A stretch of 32,723 bases of DNA from Malassezia furfur (lineage: Eukaryota): assembly GCA_052055015.1 (NCBI GenBank), contig JBQJIT010000083.1. One strand, written 5' to 3'. Shown in pieces: positions 4,653 through 24,762 of this stretch (position 1 is the first letter of the stretch; each line of letters opens with the position of its first letter). Under the pieces are notes generated by a model. That model did no database searches. It was given only the letters and a program-made list of their open reading frames with translations, and was not told the DNA's origin. Made by a program: the position numbers and the translations under genes.

Positions 4653-5351
4653 CTACTGGGCCTGGGACGCGACGTGGATGCCCGCCTCCTCGAGCGTGAC
4701 GGGGTTGTTGTCCAAGCGGAGGTCCTGTATGGCCTGCTCGGCGCCTTCCAGCACAACGTGGCGGCATGCCTTTTCGAGCTCTTCGTGCATGTCAAAATCC
4801 TGGCTAATGAGCTGGATGGGGTAGTGATCGGGGTCGTGAATCACGATGATGTCGCTGCACGTTAGCATACCGCACGTACTTTTTGGCCGAGCCGATATCG
4901 ACCGTGTCTACGCCAAGTGACTCAAATCGACGCTTGGCTTTGAGAATATCAGGCACGCTAAAGCACAAATGATGGAAACCCTACGTGCGTCAGCCATGCG
5001 AAACGTACGCCGCCCGTCGCGCGCGTCTGGAAGTTGGCGTCACTGTCGGTGCCCCTGTGTGAGTAAGTCGCGACGCACTTGCGCTGCACAAGCTCAATGA
5101 GGGAGTGTGCATGACCAAACAACGGCGAATCCTTGTTGGCCGGGAACCGCAGCCAGACTTTGCTGATATCGCTGCATTAGCGTCGCAACATACCCCACGG
5201 TCACTTCACGGACCATGTCCATGCCTGTGTCAGGCCATTCAGACATACCAAACACCTCCTGGTAAAACATGACGCTCTCATCAATGTCCTTTACCTGGAT
5301 ACATATTGAATGGAATGAGAATCCCTTGGTGTCGCGCCATGGGTTGGACAT
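4653..5351 (-). CDS. Glyoxalase I-like (VOC fold) protein, 6 exons
   Basis: Removing introns 5225-5248, 5172-5193, 5055-5078, 4981-5008 and 4855-4879 gives MSNPWRDTKGFSFHSICIQVKDIDESVMFYQEVFGM...LIELVQRKGTDSDANF...GFHHLCFSVPD...IHDPDHYPIQLI, the glyoxalase I motif pattern. Confidence 0.8.
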
Positions 5352-5560: not shown

Positions 5561-7427
5561 TTAATTAATGTCAGGGTTGAAGCGCTCCACCGGCTCGAGT
5601 TGTTCCGTGTCCGAAATCATCTCGTCCTTCATGTTGCCGAACCGGTCGTAGCGACGCGGTGTCTGCTTCTCGATGCGCACCGCATCGTACGGGTTCCATA
5701 CGCTCGAGCGCGCAAAGATGTCGTCCATCTCCTCAAGACTGCGGCCGGCAGTCTCGGGGAAAATCCACCAGGATGCGGGGGCCATCAGGAAGTTGATGAC
5801 CGCAAAGATGAGATACGTGTAGTTGTTGATGTTTTCGAATGCGACTGGTGTGATCATCACGACCATGAAGTTGAAGAGCCAGTTGGCACTCGTCGAGACA
5901 CCGTTCGCCTGAGCACGGATACTCAGCGGCGTGCACTCGGCAGGGTAAAGCCACGTCATGCCCAGCCATCCAACGGCAAAGAATGAATTGAAGACGAAGA
6001 GGAAGACACAAGCAGCGATCGCAGGACCCTTGTTACGTGCCGCACTAGGATCGTAGTCTGGAGTAGGCATGTCGAGGGCGGCATGACTCAGAAGACCACA
6101 GAGGATGGCCATAGTGAACGCCATGCCTAATGCGCACGAAATCATAAGTTTGCGGCGGCCGACGCGCTCGATCATGAAAATTGCAAGAATCGAAGCCATG
6201 AAATATTCCGTGCCATTGCATGCCGCAAGAATACGCGATTCGACCGGGGCCAACCCAATGCTCTGCTCAAAGATGGTACCAGCATAGTACGTGATCAGGT
6301 TGATACCACTGATTTGCTGGAACATTTGAATAACGAATGCGAGTGCAACACGGTGGAAGTTGTGGTTTTTGCCTTGCTTGAAAATGTCAGTCGGCTTTGA
6401 CGTAGCCGAGAGCGCAAGACTGTGCTTAATTTCCGAAATGTGCACGTTGATGGAAGGGTCGTTCAGCGGCACATTATCCAAAGCAGAAAGGACGCGGCGC
6501 GCTTCCGTTTCCCTTCCGCGTAGCATGAGCCAACGCGGACTTTCGGGCATCCAAATTGTTAAGAAAGTAGGAATAATCAAGACAATTTGGAAAGCGATCG
6601 GCACTTGCCAAGATGCATTCACATGGTCGCCGTTGGGGAAAGACTTCCACGCCCAGTACATGGCAAAGTCGACCCAGTAGGAAATCATAATACCAAAGCT
6701 GATCAGCGAACCCTCCACCATAATTAGCATGCCACGGTTGTGTGGAGGAGAACATTCTGACTGCCACATGGGAATCTGGTATAAGTCGACTCATCTTTGA
6801 GTAACGTACTGTAGAGGTGTGCTGTCCATTGCCAATACCAGCGATAATTCGTCCAATCCAGAGCAAACCAAGACGACCCTTCTGCGACGAGGGTTCTCCA
6901 GAGCAGACTTGAAGAATCGCGCCAATAAGCATCATACTGATGGTCAGTACCTAATTTATCCGAGCAACATACATGCTTCCGATCCAAATCATCCTGCGAC
7001 GGCCAAGGGTGTTACCCCACAAGATACAAGTAACAGAGCCTGCAAAGCACCCAATTTCGTAAATACCAATGGTACCACCCTGGAGTGACGAGTTGCCAAT
7101 TGGCTCGTTGCTGTTTGGCTCTGTTGTAACAAGGTCAATCTGGGGGAACTTCTCGCGGAAAGGAGGCAGCGTCAACAGACTACCCATGACACCTTGGTCG
7201 TAGCCAAAAAGTACAAAACCAACACCCGCGCAAATGGCAATCAAAAGGTTCAACTGAACGCCCCTCAATCCGAGGAAAGACACGCGTTCGGATGAACCAT
7301 AGCCGTCTGCATTGGTCCCAGGAACAACCTGGTTCTGGTCATTGTATGCAAATGAATGTTCTTTCCCTTGGGGGGCAGAGTCGCTGACAGCAGGACCCTG
7401 GGCCGCATCACCAGTATAGGAGGCCAT
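5561..7427 (-). CDS. Sugar-porter family MFS transporter, STL1-like (polyol/glycerol:H+ symporter)
   Basis: Motifs LFGYDQGVM, GRR, WMPESPRWL, QQISGINLITYY and FPETAGRSLEEMD. Introns 6937-6972 (36 nt) and 6776-6809 (34 nt) join three ORF-track fragments. Confidence 0.9.
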
Positions 7428-8417: not shown

Positions 8418-8443
8418 TTATCTGATACAACGGACCCTATAAA
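8418..8443. promoter_or_regulatory. Iron-responsive GATA-factor site (ATCAGATAA on minus strand, 8418-8426) next to TATAAA (8438-8443)
   Basis: Exact match to the ATCWGATAA SreA-type consensus, about 65 nt upstream of a siderophore transporter ATG. Confidence 0.6.
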
Positions 8444-8491
8444 GTAGGAGGAAACAAGGCCGGTAAATTAACCAACCTTCTTCGCTTCAAG

Positions 8492-10456
8492 ATGCCGTTG
8501 GGGATGCCGTCGATGCTGGAGAAAGAGAAGGTCAAGGAGTTCATCAGCCATCTTTGGAAGGTTTATCGTCCGGAATTTGAGCAGCCCGGTCAGTCGGCTG
8601 GCCCCGTCGTGGATGACAAACCCGCGGCGAAGCTGCCTGACGCTGACGAAGTTGCGCAAGACGTGGACGCTGATCTTAAGAACGACGATGACGCGAAGCA
8701 AGTTGGTGTGGCCATCGCCCAAGCAACCTATGCTATGACAGGAAAGACGTGGTATTTCATGATGGTGGCCCTGTTCATTGTTTACTATGTTTATTCGATG
8801 GACAACCTTACCACTTTGACATACCTCCAATGGGTTATGTCGACTGTGAGGCCGGATGGATCGCCAAGCTATTTCACTGCCGTGGCCATTCAAGGTGTTG
8901 TCTCGGGTGTTGCCAAACTCGCTGTCGCCAAGCTCGCTGATATCTACGGGCGCTTTTTTGCCTCTTGTGTGACTCTTTTCTTCTACATTCTGGGTTACCT
9001 TATCTTGGCTGTCGGTCAAAACAACAACACTCAGACCGCCGGTATTGCCTTGCAGGCAGTTGGCAACTCTGGGTTGCTCATTGTGATTTGGATCATTTTG
9101 GCCGACTTTTTGTCGGCGCGTATGCGTGCCTTCGGTATTGCCTTTGTGACTATGCCTTTCTTCATCACTTTTGCAACTGCACCGAAGATTTCCTCGGCGA
9201 TCACTACGACTTCGGTGGATGGCTCGCACTGGCGCTGGGGTTTCGGCATGTTCTGTATCCTTATCCCCGTCACCATGGCGCCGATCATGACCATTCTGTT
9301 CTACCTGGAGCGTAAGGCGAAGCGCAGTGGGCTTGTGCCTGTCCACCCTTACCTTCGTAATAGGTTCTGGTATGGTTTCAAGCAGTTCCTTCTGGACGCT
9401 GATATCGGTGGCATGATCCTGATCCTCGCTGGTTTCATCTTCCTGCTGTTGGCCCTGAGCCGGGGTGGTACTATCGGGTGGAGCACAGACTGGGTCATTG
9501 CCCTCCTGACGGTTGGTGGTGTTCTGATCCTTGTGGTTCCTCTTTATGAATACTACATCTCCCCTCGTCCTTTCATTCGTCAACGCTGGCTGAACTCGAG
9601 CGTCGTCCTTGCAATCTTGATTGCCTTCTTCGACTTCATGTCGTTTAACATTTCTTTCCAGATGCTCTTCTTCTGGCGTTCGATTGGTCTGAACCTGCCT
9701 CCTGGAGATGACAAGACCAACTACTTCACGTACACGGACTCGTTTTCGCTGACCATTTTCGGTGTAATCGCGGGTATGATCATCTTCTATAGTCGGCGTT
9801 ACAAGTACCTTACCGTGTGCGGTGCTGGTATCCGTCTTCTTGCGTACGGTTTGATGATCCGCTACCGTCACGATGGTACGACCATGGTCCAGGCCGTGTG
9901 GCCCCAGATTCTGCTTGGTATGGGTGGTGGTATGGTTGGTGATGTTATCACTATCTCTTCGCAAGTGACGGTGCGTCACCAGGATGTTGCCATGGTTACC
10001 GCGGTCGTCATGCTTTTCCAATCGATTGGCCAGTCTATTGGTACCACCATTTTCACGGCTATTCTTAAGGACCAATTCCCCAAGAAGCTCATGGAATACC
10101 GTGGTATTGATGCAGCGCAAGCTGAGCAAGAGTCTCTTGCTCTCTACACGAACTATGGTGTCGGGCCTGACCGCAACACTCCCGTGGTGCAGACGCAGAT
10201 TCGTGCTTGGAATGATGCTGCTGCGCGTGGTCTTTGGGCCGGCATTGTCTTCTCTGGTGTTGTTTTCCTCCTGTCGCTTTTCCTCAAGGACTACGTGCTT
10301 ACGCGCTCGCAGAATGTTGTCAGCGATGAGCTGCCTGAAAAGAGCCCGTTGGCCATGTCGAAGGACGACACCTATGAGCGGGCCATTGAGCGTGCGGAGC
10401 AGCGTGAGGCTCAGGTGACGGCGTCCCTATCAGCCAGAGCGACAAGACGCTCCTGA
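8492..10456 (+). CDS. Siderophore-iron transporter (SIT/ARN/MirB-type MFS)
   Basis: 654 aa with many TM segments and family-type motifs AKLADIYGR, HWRWGFGMFCILIPV and QVTVRHQDVAMVTA. Start could be 8492, 8504 or 8513. Confidence 0.85.
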   Translation: MPLGMPSMLEKEKVKEFISHLWKVYRPEFEQPGQSAGPVVDDKPAAKLPDADEVAQDVDADLKNDDDAKQVGVAIAQATYAMTGKTWYFMMVALFIVYYVYSMDNLTTLTYLQWVMSTVRPDGSPSYFTAVAIQGVVSGVAKLAVAKLADIYGRFFASCVTLFFYILGYLILAVGQNNNTQTAGIALQAVGNSGLLIVIWIILADFLSARMRAFGIAFVTMPFFITFATAPKISSAITTTSVDGSHWRWGFGMFCILIPVTMAPIMTILFYLERKAKRSGLVPVHPYLRNRFWYGFKQFLLDADIGGMILILAGFIFLLLALSRGGTIGWSTDWVIALLTVGGVLILVVPLYEYYISPRPFIRQRWLNSSVVLAILIAFFDFMSFNISFQMLFFWRSIGLNLPPGDDKTNYFTYTDSFSLTIFGVIAGMIIFYSRRYKYLTVCGAGIRLLAYGLMIRYRHDGTTMVQAVWPQILLGMGGGMVGDVITISSQVTVRHQDVAMVTAVVMLFQSIGQSIGTTIFTAILKDQFPKKLMEYRGIDAAQAEQESLALYTNYGVGPDRNTPVVQTQIRAWNDAAARGLWAGIVFSGVVFLLSLFLKDYVLTRSQNVVSDELPEKSPLAMSKDDTYERAIERAEQREAQVTASLSARATRRS

Positions 10457-21665: not shown

Positions 21666-23360
21666 ATGACTCGGGCAGATGAGCGTACGCCGCTGCTCGG
21701 CGGCACACAGGTGGCGGGTGCGGGAGCGCCTCGACCCATCTCAGATTCGGCCTTCTACGATCACCCTCGAAGCGAGGATCTGGATCCGAGCCATGACCCC
21801 CCTGAGCGGCCATTCTTCGTGGTCATCACGACATGCATGGCGCTCTGGTGCATCACGCTGATCGTGAGTCTGGACATGACCATTGTTTCGATGCTCCTAG
21901 GAAACATTTCGTCCGACTTTCGTGCTTCGGAGCAAGCAGCCTGGATTGGGTCGACATACCTGCTCACTGCATGCTGTACGGCGCCGGTGTACGGCCGATT
22001 GTGCGACATTATCGGCGGCAAGCGTTCGCTATCTATGGCGCTGATCCTGTTTGCCACAGGCACACTGGGCTGCGGTGCAGCACGGAACATGTCCGAATTC
22101 TTGCTTTCGCGCACCATCGCCGGCATGGGCGGTGGTGGTCTGAACACGGTGGGGAGTGTTATCGTGAGCCACCTCGTACCGCTGCACTCGCGTGGCGTGT
22201 ACCAAGGTCTGACGAACATTGTGTTTGGTCTTGGGATTGCCATTGGTGGTCCAATTGGTGGCGCATTCAACGATACGCTCGGCTGGCGCGCCGCCTTCTA
22301 CTTCCAGGTGCCCATTATCTGTGTCGCGTTTCTTGCGTTGCTCACGCTCCTGGACGACACGGTCCCCCACGGGGATGACCAGCGTTCGGTGTGGCGTCGT
22401 CTGCAGGACATTGACCTGCTTGGGCTGGGCGTGGTGACCATGGCACCGCTGTCGCTGCTGTATGCGATGGATCTGGTGAGCGTCAAGGATGTGCCCTTTG
22501 ACGACGTCCGTGTCATGGCGAGCGGCGTCGTGGCCGTGCTGGCGCTCGTGGGATTCTATGTGGTGGAGCGTTATGTGGCGCGTGTGCCGCTCATCTCGCT
22601 CGACGTGCTTGCGCTGCGGTCCGGCTGGTCGTCGCTGTGGACCAACTTTTGGCTGAGCATTGCCAACTTTGGCTACAACTTCAACTTCCCGCTCTTTTTC
22701 CAAGTGGTCGGCAAGCTGCCGCCCTCGGTGATTGGTGCGCGCATGATTCCTGCAAGCATGGCACTGAGTGCCGGCAGTCTGTTTTCCGGGTTCTACATGC
22801 GGAAGACGGGCTACTACTACTGGTACACCGTGGCGTGTCTGACCGTCGCGACGGTTGCGATTTGGCGCTCGACGCTCTTTGACGATCACCCGCCGCTGGT
22901 GTCGCCGTTTGTGATCAACACCTTTTTGTACTTTAGCCAGTCCGGGGTGCTGACCACGACGCTACTGGCGCTGATCAACAGCGTCGAAAAGCACGCGATT
23001 GGTGTGTCGACGGGGATGAGCTACTTTTTCCGCTCCAACGGTCAGGTGCTTGGTGTGGCCATGACGGGTGGTATCATGCAGGTATCGCTGCTCCGGGCGC
23101 TGCGCTGGCGCATCGTGGGCCCCGACGCTGACGACATGATTGCACGCATCCGACACGAGGCGACGTCGATCGACAAACTCCCCGAGGAGTTCCAAGGCGC
23201 CGCAATCGAGTCGTACACGTACGCGCTGCACAATGTGTTTGTGTTTGTGTTCTTGTGCGACATCCTGGCGCTGGTGTGCGGCCTGTTTATCGAGAACAAG
23301 CGGCTGCCCATGCCGGACGACAAGCGCACGACTACCCCGGCCGATGAGGAACGCAATTAG
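21666..23360 (+). CDS. DHA2-type MFS transporter, Vba-like (vacuolar basic amino acid/drug)
   Basis: N-terminal DERTPLL acidic dileucine signal, then SLDMTIV, YGRLCDIIG, AGMGGGG and LGWRAAF; about 14 TM segments. Confidence 0.85.
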   Translation: MTRADERTPLLGGTQVAGAGAPRPISDSAFYDHPRSEDLDPSHDPPERPFFVVITTCMALWCITLIVSLDMTIVSMLLGNISSDFRASEQAAWIGSTYLLTACCTAPVYGRLCDIIGGKRSLSMALILFATGTLGCGAARNMSEFLLSRTIAGMGGGGLNTVGSVIVSHLVPLHSRGVYQGLTNIVFGLGIAIGGPIGGAFNDTLGWRAAFYFQVPIICVAFLALLTLLDDTVPHGDDQRSVWRRLQDIDLLGLGVVTMAPLSLLYAMDLVSVKDVPFDDVRVMASGVVAVLALVGFYVVERYVARVPLISLDVLALRSGWSSLWTNFWLSIANFGYNFNFPLFFQVVGKLPPSVIGARMIPASMALSAGSLFSGFYMRKTGYYYWYTVACLTVATVAIWRSTLFDDHPPLVSPFVINTFLYFSQSGVLTTTLLALINSVEKHAIGVSTGMSYFFRSNGQVLGVAMTGGIMQVSLLRALRWRIVGPDADDMIARIRHEATSIDKLPEEFQGAAIESYTYALHNVFVFVFLCDILALVCGLFIENKRLPMPDDKRTTTPADEERN

Positions 23361-23440
23361 TGTGTCACATCTGTCCTTCTAATGACGCAAAAAACTATAG
23401 AACCGCAGCCGTGTCTCTCTTCCTCGCGACACGCACGCCC

Positions 23441-24762
23441 CTAATGCCATCCAGCCTCATCCAGACGCGGCTGCTGCGCCATGTACACATGCCCCGCATT
23501 GTTGCCCACCACACCCGACGCACCGGCCACGACCGGCGACTCGGGGGCGGCCATGCGCTCCGAGCCGATCACGGCGGGCACAGAGCCCCGCGCGTACTCC
23601 GGCGCAGCCGTCGCGCGGTTCGACGCGGGCTCGGCGTACTCGGCCGGAAGCACCTTGCGCCGTGGCAGCTGCTGGGCGGCGCTCGACGGCTTGCCGGCCT
23701 GGGCCTGCGTCGTGTCCTGCTGGCTGGGCCCGGGCGGGGGCAGCCCCGCCGAGGGGTGCTCGACGCGCTCGCGCGGCTGGATGCTCCAGTCGTACACGTA
23801 GTCGTACTGGTATCCCTCGCGCACAAACAGGTCGCGGAAGAGCTTGCGCAGGTAGCTGTAGTCTGGCCGGTCGTCGAACCGGAGCGAGCGGCAGCAGTTG
23901 AGGTATATGGCCATCTCTGTCGGGAAGCCGCGGCACAGCGTCTCGGTCGAAGTCATCATTTTCTTTTCCATGATCCGCTCGTACTTTTGCTTCTTGGTGG
24001 CGGCTTTGAGTCCCTGCCAAGGCAGCGAGCCCCGCAAAAAGTACATCAGCACGTACCCGAGCGACTCGAGGTCATCGCGGCGCGACTGTTCGACACCCAG
24101 GTGTGTGTTGATCGACGTGTAGCGCGCTGTGCCCGTCAGGTTTTTGTTTTCGCGGTAAGGAATGTGCAGATGCGTCTTCGGGTCGCGGTACTTTTTGGCG
24201 AGACCAAAGTCGATCACGTTTACCTGGTTGCCCCGCTTGCCGATGCCCATCAGGAAGTTATCCGGCTTGATGTCGCGGTGGATAAAGTTGCGCGAGTGGA
24301 TGTATTCCACACGCGAGATCATCTGGTCGGCCAACAGCAGCACCGTCTTGAGCGAGAAGCGCCGGTTGCAGAAGTTGAACAGGTCCTCGAGCGACGGTCC
24401 CAGTAGGTCGATCACCATCGCGTTATAGTCACACTCCTGCCCAAACCACCTCACAAACGGCACACCGACGCCGCCGGCGAGCGTCTTGTATACCTTGGCC
24501 TCATACTCGAGCTGGGGGTGCTTGGCTTTCACCGACTCAAGCTTGATTGCGACCTCTTCGCCGCTGATAATGTTCACGCCCAGGTAGATGTCGCCGAACG
24601 ACCCCGAGCCGATCTTTTTTCCGATCCGGTACTGTGGTTAGTTATATGGGGTCGACGATGCGGTGCATACCCTGTTGGAGGCGCCACCCAGGGCGACCGT
24701 GTGTCAGTATGGCTCTTTGCAAACACAGTAGATACGTACTTTCCGCCCACGCGTAGATCCAT
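23441..24762 (-). CDS. HRR25: Casein kinase I (Hrr25/Hhp1 type)
   Basis: [61 protein letters not shown] and [10 protein letters not shown]. Predicted exons 24740-24762, 24671 (1 nt) and 23441-24631. Confidence 0.96.
24671..24671 (-). other. Predicted single-nucleotide exon (G) of casein kinase I
   Basis: Minus strand reads GGA AA|gtacgt...caacag|G|gtatgc...ctaaccacag|TAC CGG. Keeping the G gives AAG TAC (K-Y) in frame. Confidence 0.75.

Follow-up and report, generated by a model that had tools for sequence, protein, structure and literature searches.

Single-base exons and abutting introns described so far

One-nucleotide exons are rare and already documented in plants, Fusarium and Coprinopsis, and the exon considered here, in a casein kinase I (CK1) gene of Malassezia, adds to them. 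In Fusarium, the one-nucleotide exon of CYP621A, reported as confirmed by transcript reads, resides like that of CK1 in a fungal nuclear gene and in an identical AG/G/GT pentamer, supplies a base within a codon of a conserved motif, is conserved among orthologues, belongs to a combined block more than twice as long as the usual intron and was missed by annotation (Nelson and Syed, 2026; PMC12940212). The two cases differ in their setting, since CYP621A is described as a rarely expressed P450 of an ascomycete whereas the Malassezia CK1 is a core kinase of a basidiomycete yeast with introns of about 30 nt, as well as in the position of the G, namely the middle base of a Gly codon in CYP621A and the third base of a Lys codon in CK1 (PMC12940212). 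In plants, the 1-nt microexons of APC11 and VPS55 resemble the CK1 exon in that a constitutive base stands between GT-AG introns, has been conserved for long and is reported as absent from reference annotations (Guo and Liu, 2015, PMC4674806; Yu et al., 2022, PMC8831610). For APC11, mutation of the base is described as changing the cDNA, and this mutational proof sets it apart from the CK1 exon, known here from sequence comparison; the intervening region of 422 nt, with long plant introns, and the Arabidopsis base, an A instead of the G of CK1, are further differences (PMC4674806). Coprinopsis cinerea is a basidiomycete with 1-nt internal exons, as is Malassezia, and its long-read annotation is reported to hold 13 one-nucleotide exons in 13 genes, which were accepted there on transcript evidence; what that source provides, in its passages on these exons, is a genome-wide count without a case study, unlike the account given here for CK1 (PMC12230235). 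Regarding Malassezia itself, a literature search on the genus with microexon, 1-bp exon or stwintron returned no paper on this exon.

Two further splicing arrangements bring an acceptor and a donor into close contact. In recursive splicing at AG/GT ratchet points, the acceptor abuts the donor and a longer region is removed stepwise. Such sites leave zero nucleotides and belong to very long animal introns, whereas one base is kept between the tiny introns of CK1; a recursive zero-length-exon site was considered for this locus and discarded, as one G stands between the AG and the GT and is needed for the reading frame. In stwintrons, an internal intron is described as interrupting the donor, the branch or the acceptor element of an external intron, with consecutive excision of the two in a fixed order (Fekete et al., 2017; PMC5587772). 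Together with the associated model of 1-nt intron shift, they resemble CK1 as read here in that two U2 introns share one short fungal block, are removed in two consecutive intron-defined reactions and leave introns 1 nt apart when one or the other is lost (PMC5587772). They differ in that the internal intron of a stwintron splits an element of the external one with no exon base in between, while both CK1 introns are complete and one base is kept (PMC5587772). When the CK1 block was parsed as a [D1,2] or [A2,3] stwintron, both attempts failed, its GTAYG donors, CTRAC motifs and CAG acceptors being intact. Since every splice element is uninterrupted, the block does not qualify as a stwintron, and the stwintron-like splicing put forward in the original prediction, made from the letters of this DNA, is not supported.

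The CK1/HRR25 gene of Malassezia furfur

The window, i.e. the whole stretch of DNA analysed, is 32,723 nt long and belongs to contig JBQJIT010000083.1 of a Malassezia furfur assembly (GCA_052055015.1). The main exon of the gene matches CK1/HRR25-type kinases, the closest named ones being from Malassezia. These matches carry PF00069/PF07714 in precomputed Pfam annotation and source names including Hrr25p and casein kinase-1 hhp1, and the 90% cluster of the best match includes HRR25 of Malassezia furfur, which points to M. furfur or a very close relative. With its kinase domain, the N-terminal MDLRVG.KYR[IL] and orthologues named HRR25 or Hhp1, the product belongs to the HRR25/Hhp1 type of CK1. 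From its sequence, the gene very probably harbours two complete U2-type GT-AG introns, of 68 and 39 nt, which abut a constitutive exon reduced to a single nucleotide, the G at position 24671 (Table 1).

Table 1. Predicted features of the CK1/HRR25 gene and two transporter genes in the window
Feature	Positions	Strand	Details
Coding exon 1, CK1/HRR25 gene	24740..24762	minus	ATG GAT CTA CGC GTG GGC GGA AA; encodes M D L R V G G and the first two bases of the Lys codon
Start codon ATG	24762-24760	minus	start context GCCGCCATGG
Intron 1, 68 nt, phase 2	24672..24739	minus	donor GTACGTAT (24739-24732), acceptor CAACAG; outer letters GTACGT..CAACAG
Alternative in-frame donor GTATCT	24730..24735	minus	C at +5; with the acceptor at 24632 gives the KYY protein
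Branch-like motif ACTGAC, intron 1	24708-24703	minus	branch A 32 nt before the 3' end
One-nucleotide exon G	24671	minus	third base of Lys-8 (AA+G), within the conserved 9-mer CAG/G/GTATG
Intron 2, 39 nt, phase 0	24632..24670	minus	donor GTATGC, acceptor CCACAG
Branch motif ACTAAC, intron 2	24642-24637	minus	branch A 6 nt before the 3' end
Main exon, 396 codons + TAG	23441..24631	minus	CK1 kinase domain and C-terminal tail; opens TAC CGG ATC GGA AAA AAG ATC GGC; single open frame to the stop at 23441
MFS transporter ORF	8426-10456	plus	in low-G+C stretch
Sugar-transporter gene	5561-6790	minus	likely 36-nt intron at 6972-6937; in low-G+C stretch

The coordinates and the minus-strand reading of the block given in the original prediction are right, and each intron has indeed a donor, a branch motif and a CAG acceptor of its own, with ACTGAC and CAACAG in the first and ACTAAC and CCACAG in the second. 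In both introns, the proposed acceptor is the first usable AG 3' of the branch motif; in intron 1, where it is the first AG of all, the sole CTRAY motif, at 32 nt from the acceptor in the window, is farther away than in nearby short introns. AG-N-GT occurs once in the 108-nt block. A search of the window on both strands for two abutting intron-like units no more than 6 nt apart matched at the CK1 locus only, and the same pattern gave a mean of 0.12 matches, with a maximum of 2, in block shuffles (n = 50).

Splice models were assembled in silico and then translated. Joining exon 1, the G and the main exon gives a mature mRNA that reads GGA AAG TAC CGG, i.e. the GGCGGAAAGTACCGG form, and a protein of 404 aa. 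In the other models, translation ends after 26 aa when the G is skipped, 62 aa when the whole block is retained, 49 aa when intron 1 alone is retained and 18 aa when intron 2 alone is retained; skipping of the G and retention of the whole block would thus both break the kinase, as had been claimed. It is also true of these models that the conserved KYRIG is obtained through GT-AG sites only when the G at 24671 is kept. What had been overlooked, however, is a second path that is canonical and in frame, from the GTATCT donor at 24735 to the acceptor at 24632, which gives 405 aa with KYYRIG in silico and GGAAAGTACTACCGG as the junction sequence.

The product of the model with two introns and the G is identical to the protein P0001 over 404/404 residues (100% identity and coverage), whose only sources are assembled public sequencing runs, with 5 contigs of 1705 nt or less. 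In its genomic form (P0124), this protein starts with MNIISGEE and is found on 74 contigs of up to 2.75 Mb. As the uninterrupted KYRIG frame is unreadable from the genome, the short contigs of P0001 would represent spliced RNA. Contig sizes and sources likewise point to a transcript origin for P0214 and P0216, which come from another species, have 413 aa and the KYRIG N-terminus, and are found on 12 and 3 contigs, respectively, of 3.7 kb at most. At the protein level, the mRNA contains a base that is contiguous with neither flanking exon; this base is a purine and the G is the sole candidate, the protein evidence fixing the Lys (AAR) rather than the base itself. Besides, products with the conserved N-terminus rule out the objection that the mRNA uses another start or another exon.

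Regarding the other introns of the window, a motif-plus-ORF scan for candidates of at most 40 nt points to sizes of about 20-38 nt, as a rough guide only since the scan is noisy, with many matches inside long ORFs. About 13 convincing short introns were chosen by eye, and several candidates stand exactly at the ends of Pfam-supported ORFs. The range of 20-38 nt agrees with M. sympodialis, in which introns are reported to average 30 bp (PMC5389616). On so noisy a scan, the earlier statement that the CK1 introns are the longest of the window while most others have 21-28 nt is plausible rather than established. Among 22 candidates picked by rule, GTACGT (5) and GTATGT (3) are the only recurring donors; GTACGT, the commonest donor of the short intron candidates of the window, is also that of intron 1.

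Conservation in Malassezia and competing readings

A scan of metagenomes with a Malassezia-specific part of the protein returned 80 loci, four of which are Malassezia-like (L001-L004), L001 being devoid of its 5' end; the sole match in a scan of genome contigs for more Malassezia DNA was an unrelated bacterial MAG. L002, L003 and L004 all read GGAAA/GTACGTAT...CTAAC...CAG/G/GTATGT...CTRAC...CAG/TACCGT, and the layout common to them and the window is GGAAA/GTACGTAT..CTRAC..CAG/G/GTATG..CTRAC..CAG/TACCG, with a branch motif in each half. In all four sequences, the G is flanked by AG and GT, and each intron possesses its own donor, branch motif and acceptor. The introns have 67 and 45 nt in L002, and 52 and 54 nt in both L003 and L004. 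AG-N-GT is found once in the block of the window, L003 and L004, and three times in that of L002, two of them at 11-13 nt from the donor.

The main exon of L002 is identical over 389/389 residues to M. sympodialis proteins, including the curated P0160 (SHO79405.1), the N-terminus of which reads KYRIG, and L003 and L004, which are close to each other, match clusters of the restricta/arunalokei type. The annotation of M. sympodialis is described as combining RNA-seq with manual curation, with 99% of introns supported by RNA (PMC5389616). Because this curated protein has the correct N-terminus, the one-nucleotide exon or an equivalent join is probably already present in the SHO79405.1 record; in the text supplement of that study, as far as it is accessible, neither HRR25 nor exon-size terms appear (PMC5389616).

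Since a MAFFT alignment of the four regions left the junction of L003 and L004 out of register with the other two, parts of the regions were compared directly. The interiors of the introns are no more similar among the three lineages than shuffles are (z from -1.3 to 2.6), whereas the junction CAGGGTATG is kept in the orthologues beyond neutral expectation; no words longer than this junction and the first donor GTACGTAT are shared by the four sequences. The check for a conserved AG-G-GT in orthologues, suggested at the outset, was thus run and found CAG/G/GTATG in three other Malassezia loci. This conservation and the identity of P0001 to the model argue together that the one-nucleotide exon is real, and its layout is older than the divergence of the furfur, sympodialis and restricta-like lineages. 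The objection of an indel error is ruled out, as four independent assemblies share the layout. Outside Malassezia, the 57 loci with the N-terminus in view are all contiguous and all read KY-R[IL]G with a single Y; it follows that only Malassezia has the interruption and that KYY does not occur as a natural form.

Among the competing readings, the one that goes furthest in function takes the block as a stwintron-like device with an obligatory order of splicing, in which regulated skipping of the G, leading to the product of 26 aa and likely to NMD, would act as a switch of kinase dosage. Several features would suit it: either intron retained or the G skipped results in truncation at 18-62 aa, the CK1 introns (39-68 nt) exceed in length the short candidates found in the rest of the window, and the layout is kept across the genus. 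It nevertheless appears improbable, as the block shows no interrupted splice element and as precise loss of either intron would be harmless, so that retention of the introns needs no function. Compared with shuffles, RNA structure around the block has no extra stability and none is shared among the four sequences (z = 2.1, 0.5, 0.8 and -0.7), and a structural switch was rejected on this ground. Since both introns are complete, either could go first, and nothing supports the fixed order of splicing that had been proposed; likewise, the on/off switch for the kinase finds no support and is speculation.

A reading with a different mRNA, and one to which we give very little credence, is that the main splice removes a single canonical GT-AG intron of 104 nt, from the GTATCT donor to the acceptor of intron 2, thereby adding a tyrosine. 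This model is in frame and corresponds to P0123, the GenBank models of M. furfur and M. obtusa use its intron, and the GTAT at +5 to +8 of intron 1, which fits its donor, is kept in all four sequences. The donor, however, has a C or a T at +5 and varies between lineages at +5/+6 (GTATCT, GTATTT, GTATTC), the conserved internal CAG/G/GTATG and the second branch motif would be left unexplained, and all 57 of the other fungi have a single Y. Besides, the sole full-length transcript-type product of the species has KY, and the KYY form is found in the 90% cluster of P0001 only in the NCBI gene models P0122 and P0123. As for the conserved letters, another reading assigns the AT at +7/+8 to the GTACGT donor, whose pairing with the 5' end of U1 snRNA it would presumably lengthen, thereby making up for the A at exon position -1; with such extended pairing, the overlapping GTATNN would look conserved without being used. 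The KY splice predicts junction reads with AAGTACCGG and the KYY splice junction reads with AAGTACTACCGG, and a minor KYY isoform may accompany the KY form.

The last reading, namely a single 107-nt intron with non-canonical ends and a fortuitous internal AG-G-GT, predicts the same mature mRNA and protein as two introns do and, through the AGTAC repeated at both borders, allows its ends to be GT..CA, TA..AG, GT..AC and so forth, but it is hardly credible, as none of its 6 possible border pairs is GT-AG, GC-AG or AT-AC and as three lineages, with otherwise randomised intron bodies, have all kept CAGGGTATG and a branch motif 5' of each CAG. By our own arithmetic, a given 9-mer would turn up by chance within about 100 nt at a rate of roughly 4e-4 per lineage.

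Probable splicing, possible intron shift and annotation of the one-base exon

With two introns on either side of a one-base exon, splicing would proceed by intron definition, each intron being recognised separately by its donor, its branch motif and the first downstream AG, and their removal would be sequential, with either of them going first. Excision of intron 1 first would leave the context AAG/GTATGC, and that of intron 2 first CAG/GTACCG. As the context would be an ordinary one after either removal, a single spliceosome would never hold a free exon of 1 nt, and a clash would be expected only if assembly took place at the same time on the acceptor and the donor, which overlap. Both introns have kept an extra length, which could respond to a spacing need of abutting splice sites. 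The G itself suits position +1 of an acceptor and position -1 of a donor alike, a point that is also made for the G at both sites by the authors of the Fusarium CYP621A report (PMC12940212).

Beyond the species at hand, the one-base exon might be the hub of a natural series of 1-nt intron shifts within one genus, an idea that is tentative and that we consider rather doubtful. Both introns are still present in the furfur, sympodialis and restricta-like lineages. In the P0030/P0133 lineage, genomic contigs (P0031, up to 208 kb) read through as GGK-VRSELTQ-YRIG, which looks like a single in-frame phase-0 intron of 21 nt instead of two, and the M. equina model P0158 (KY-TR-YRIG) may fit, by back-translation only, a single phase-2 intron ..NAG/GTACCG. 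If true, introns could slide without a stwintron, through the precise loss of one or the other of the introns that flank a 1-nt exon.

The practical value of the exon is in annotation, as it is absent from most public models of the gene. Among 17 named CK1/HRR25 models from Malassezia at NCBI, only that of M. sympodialis (SHO79405.1) has the conserved N-terminus; the 16 others (P0006, P0014, P0023, P0024, P0032, P0122, P0123, P0138, P0140, P0155, P0156, P0158, P0159, P0161, P0170 and P0222) have wrong N-termini, with an extra tyrosine (3), other residues inserted (4), a deletion (1) or a start inside the intron (8). On the reading retained here, a clean and conserved one-base exon would be present in a core, normally essential kinase of a genus whose introns are among the shortest known, where an intron-defined spliceosome would handle abutting splice sites routinely. 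As Malassezia is described as transformable, the locus could be used as an experimental model for minimal exon size and for the order of splicing.

The genes neighbouring CK1 in the window are ordinary ones, encoding MFS and sugar transporters, an FGGY kinase, a glycosyltransferase, GalT and a dCMP deaminase. Between positions 5200 and 10800, the G+C content of the window is 0.46-0.55 vs. 0.58-0.69 elsewhere, and a strong negative AT skew is observed at 8800-10000. The CK1 gene converges with a plus-strand MFS transporter ORF ending at 23360, with about 80 nt between the two stop codons (region 23348-23460), and their 3' UTRs must therefore overlap or be very short. In a non-Malassezia fungal CK1 locus (L047, 1650-1740), an intron is found elsewhere in the same N-terminal peptide, after MDLR, with the borders ATGGATTTGCG/GTAAGT...CACCAG/GGTTGG.
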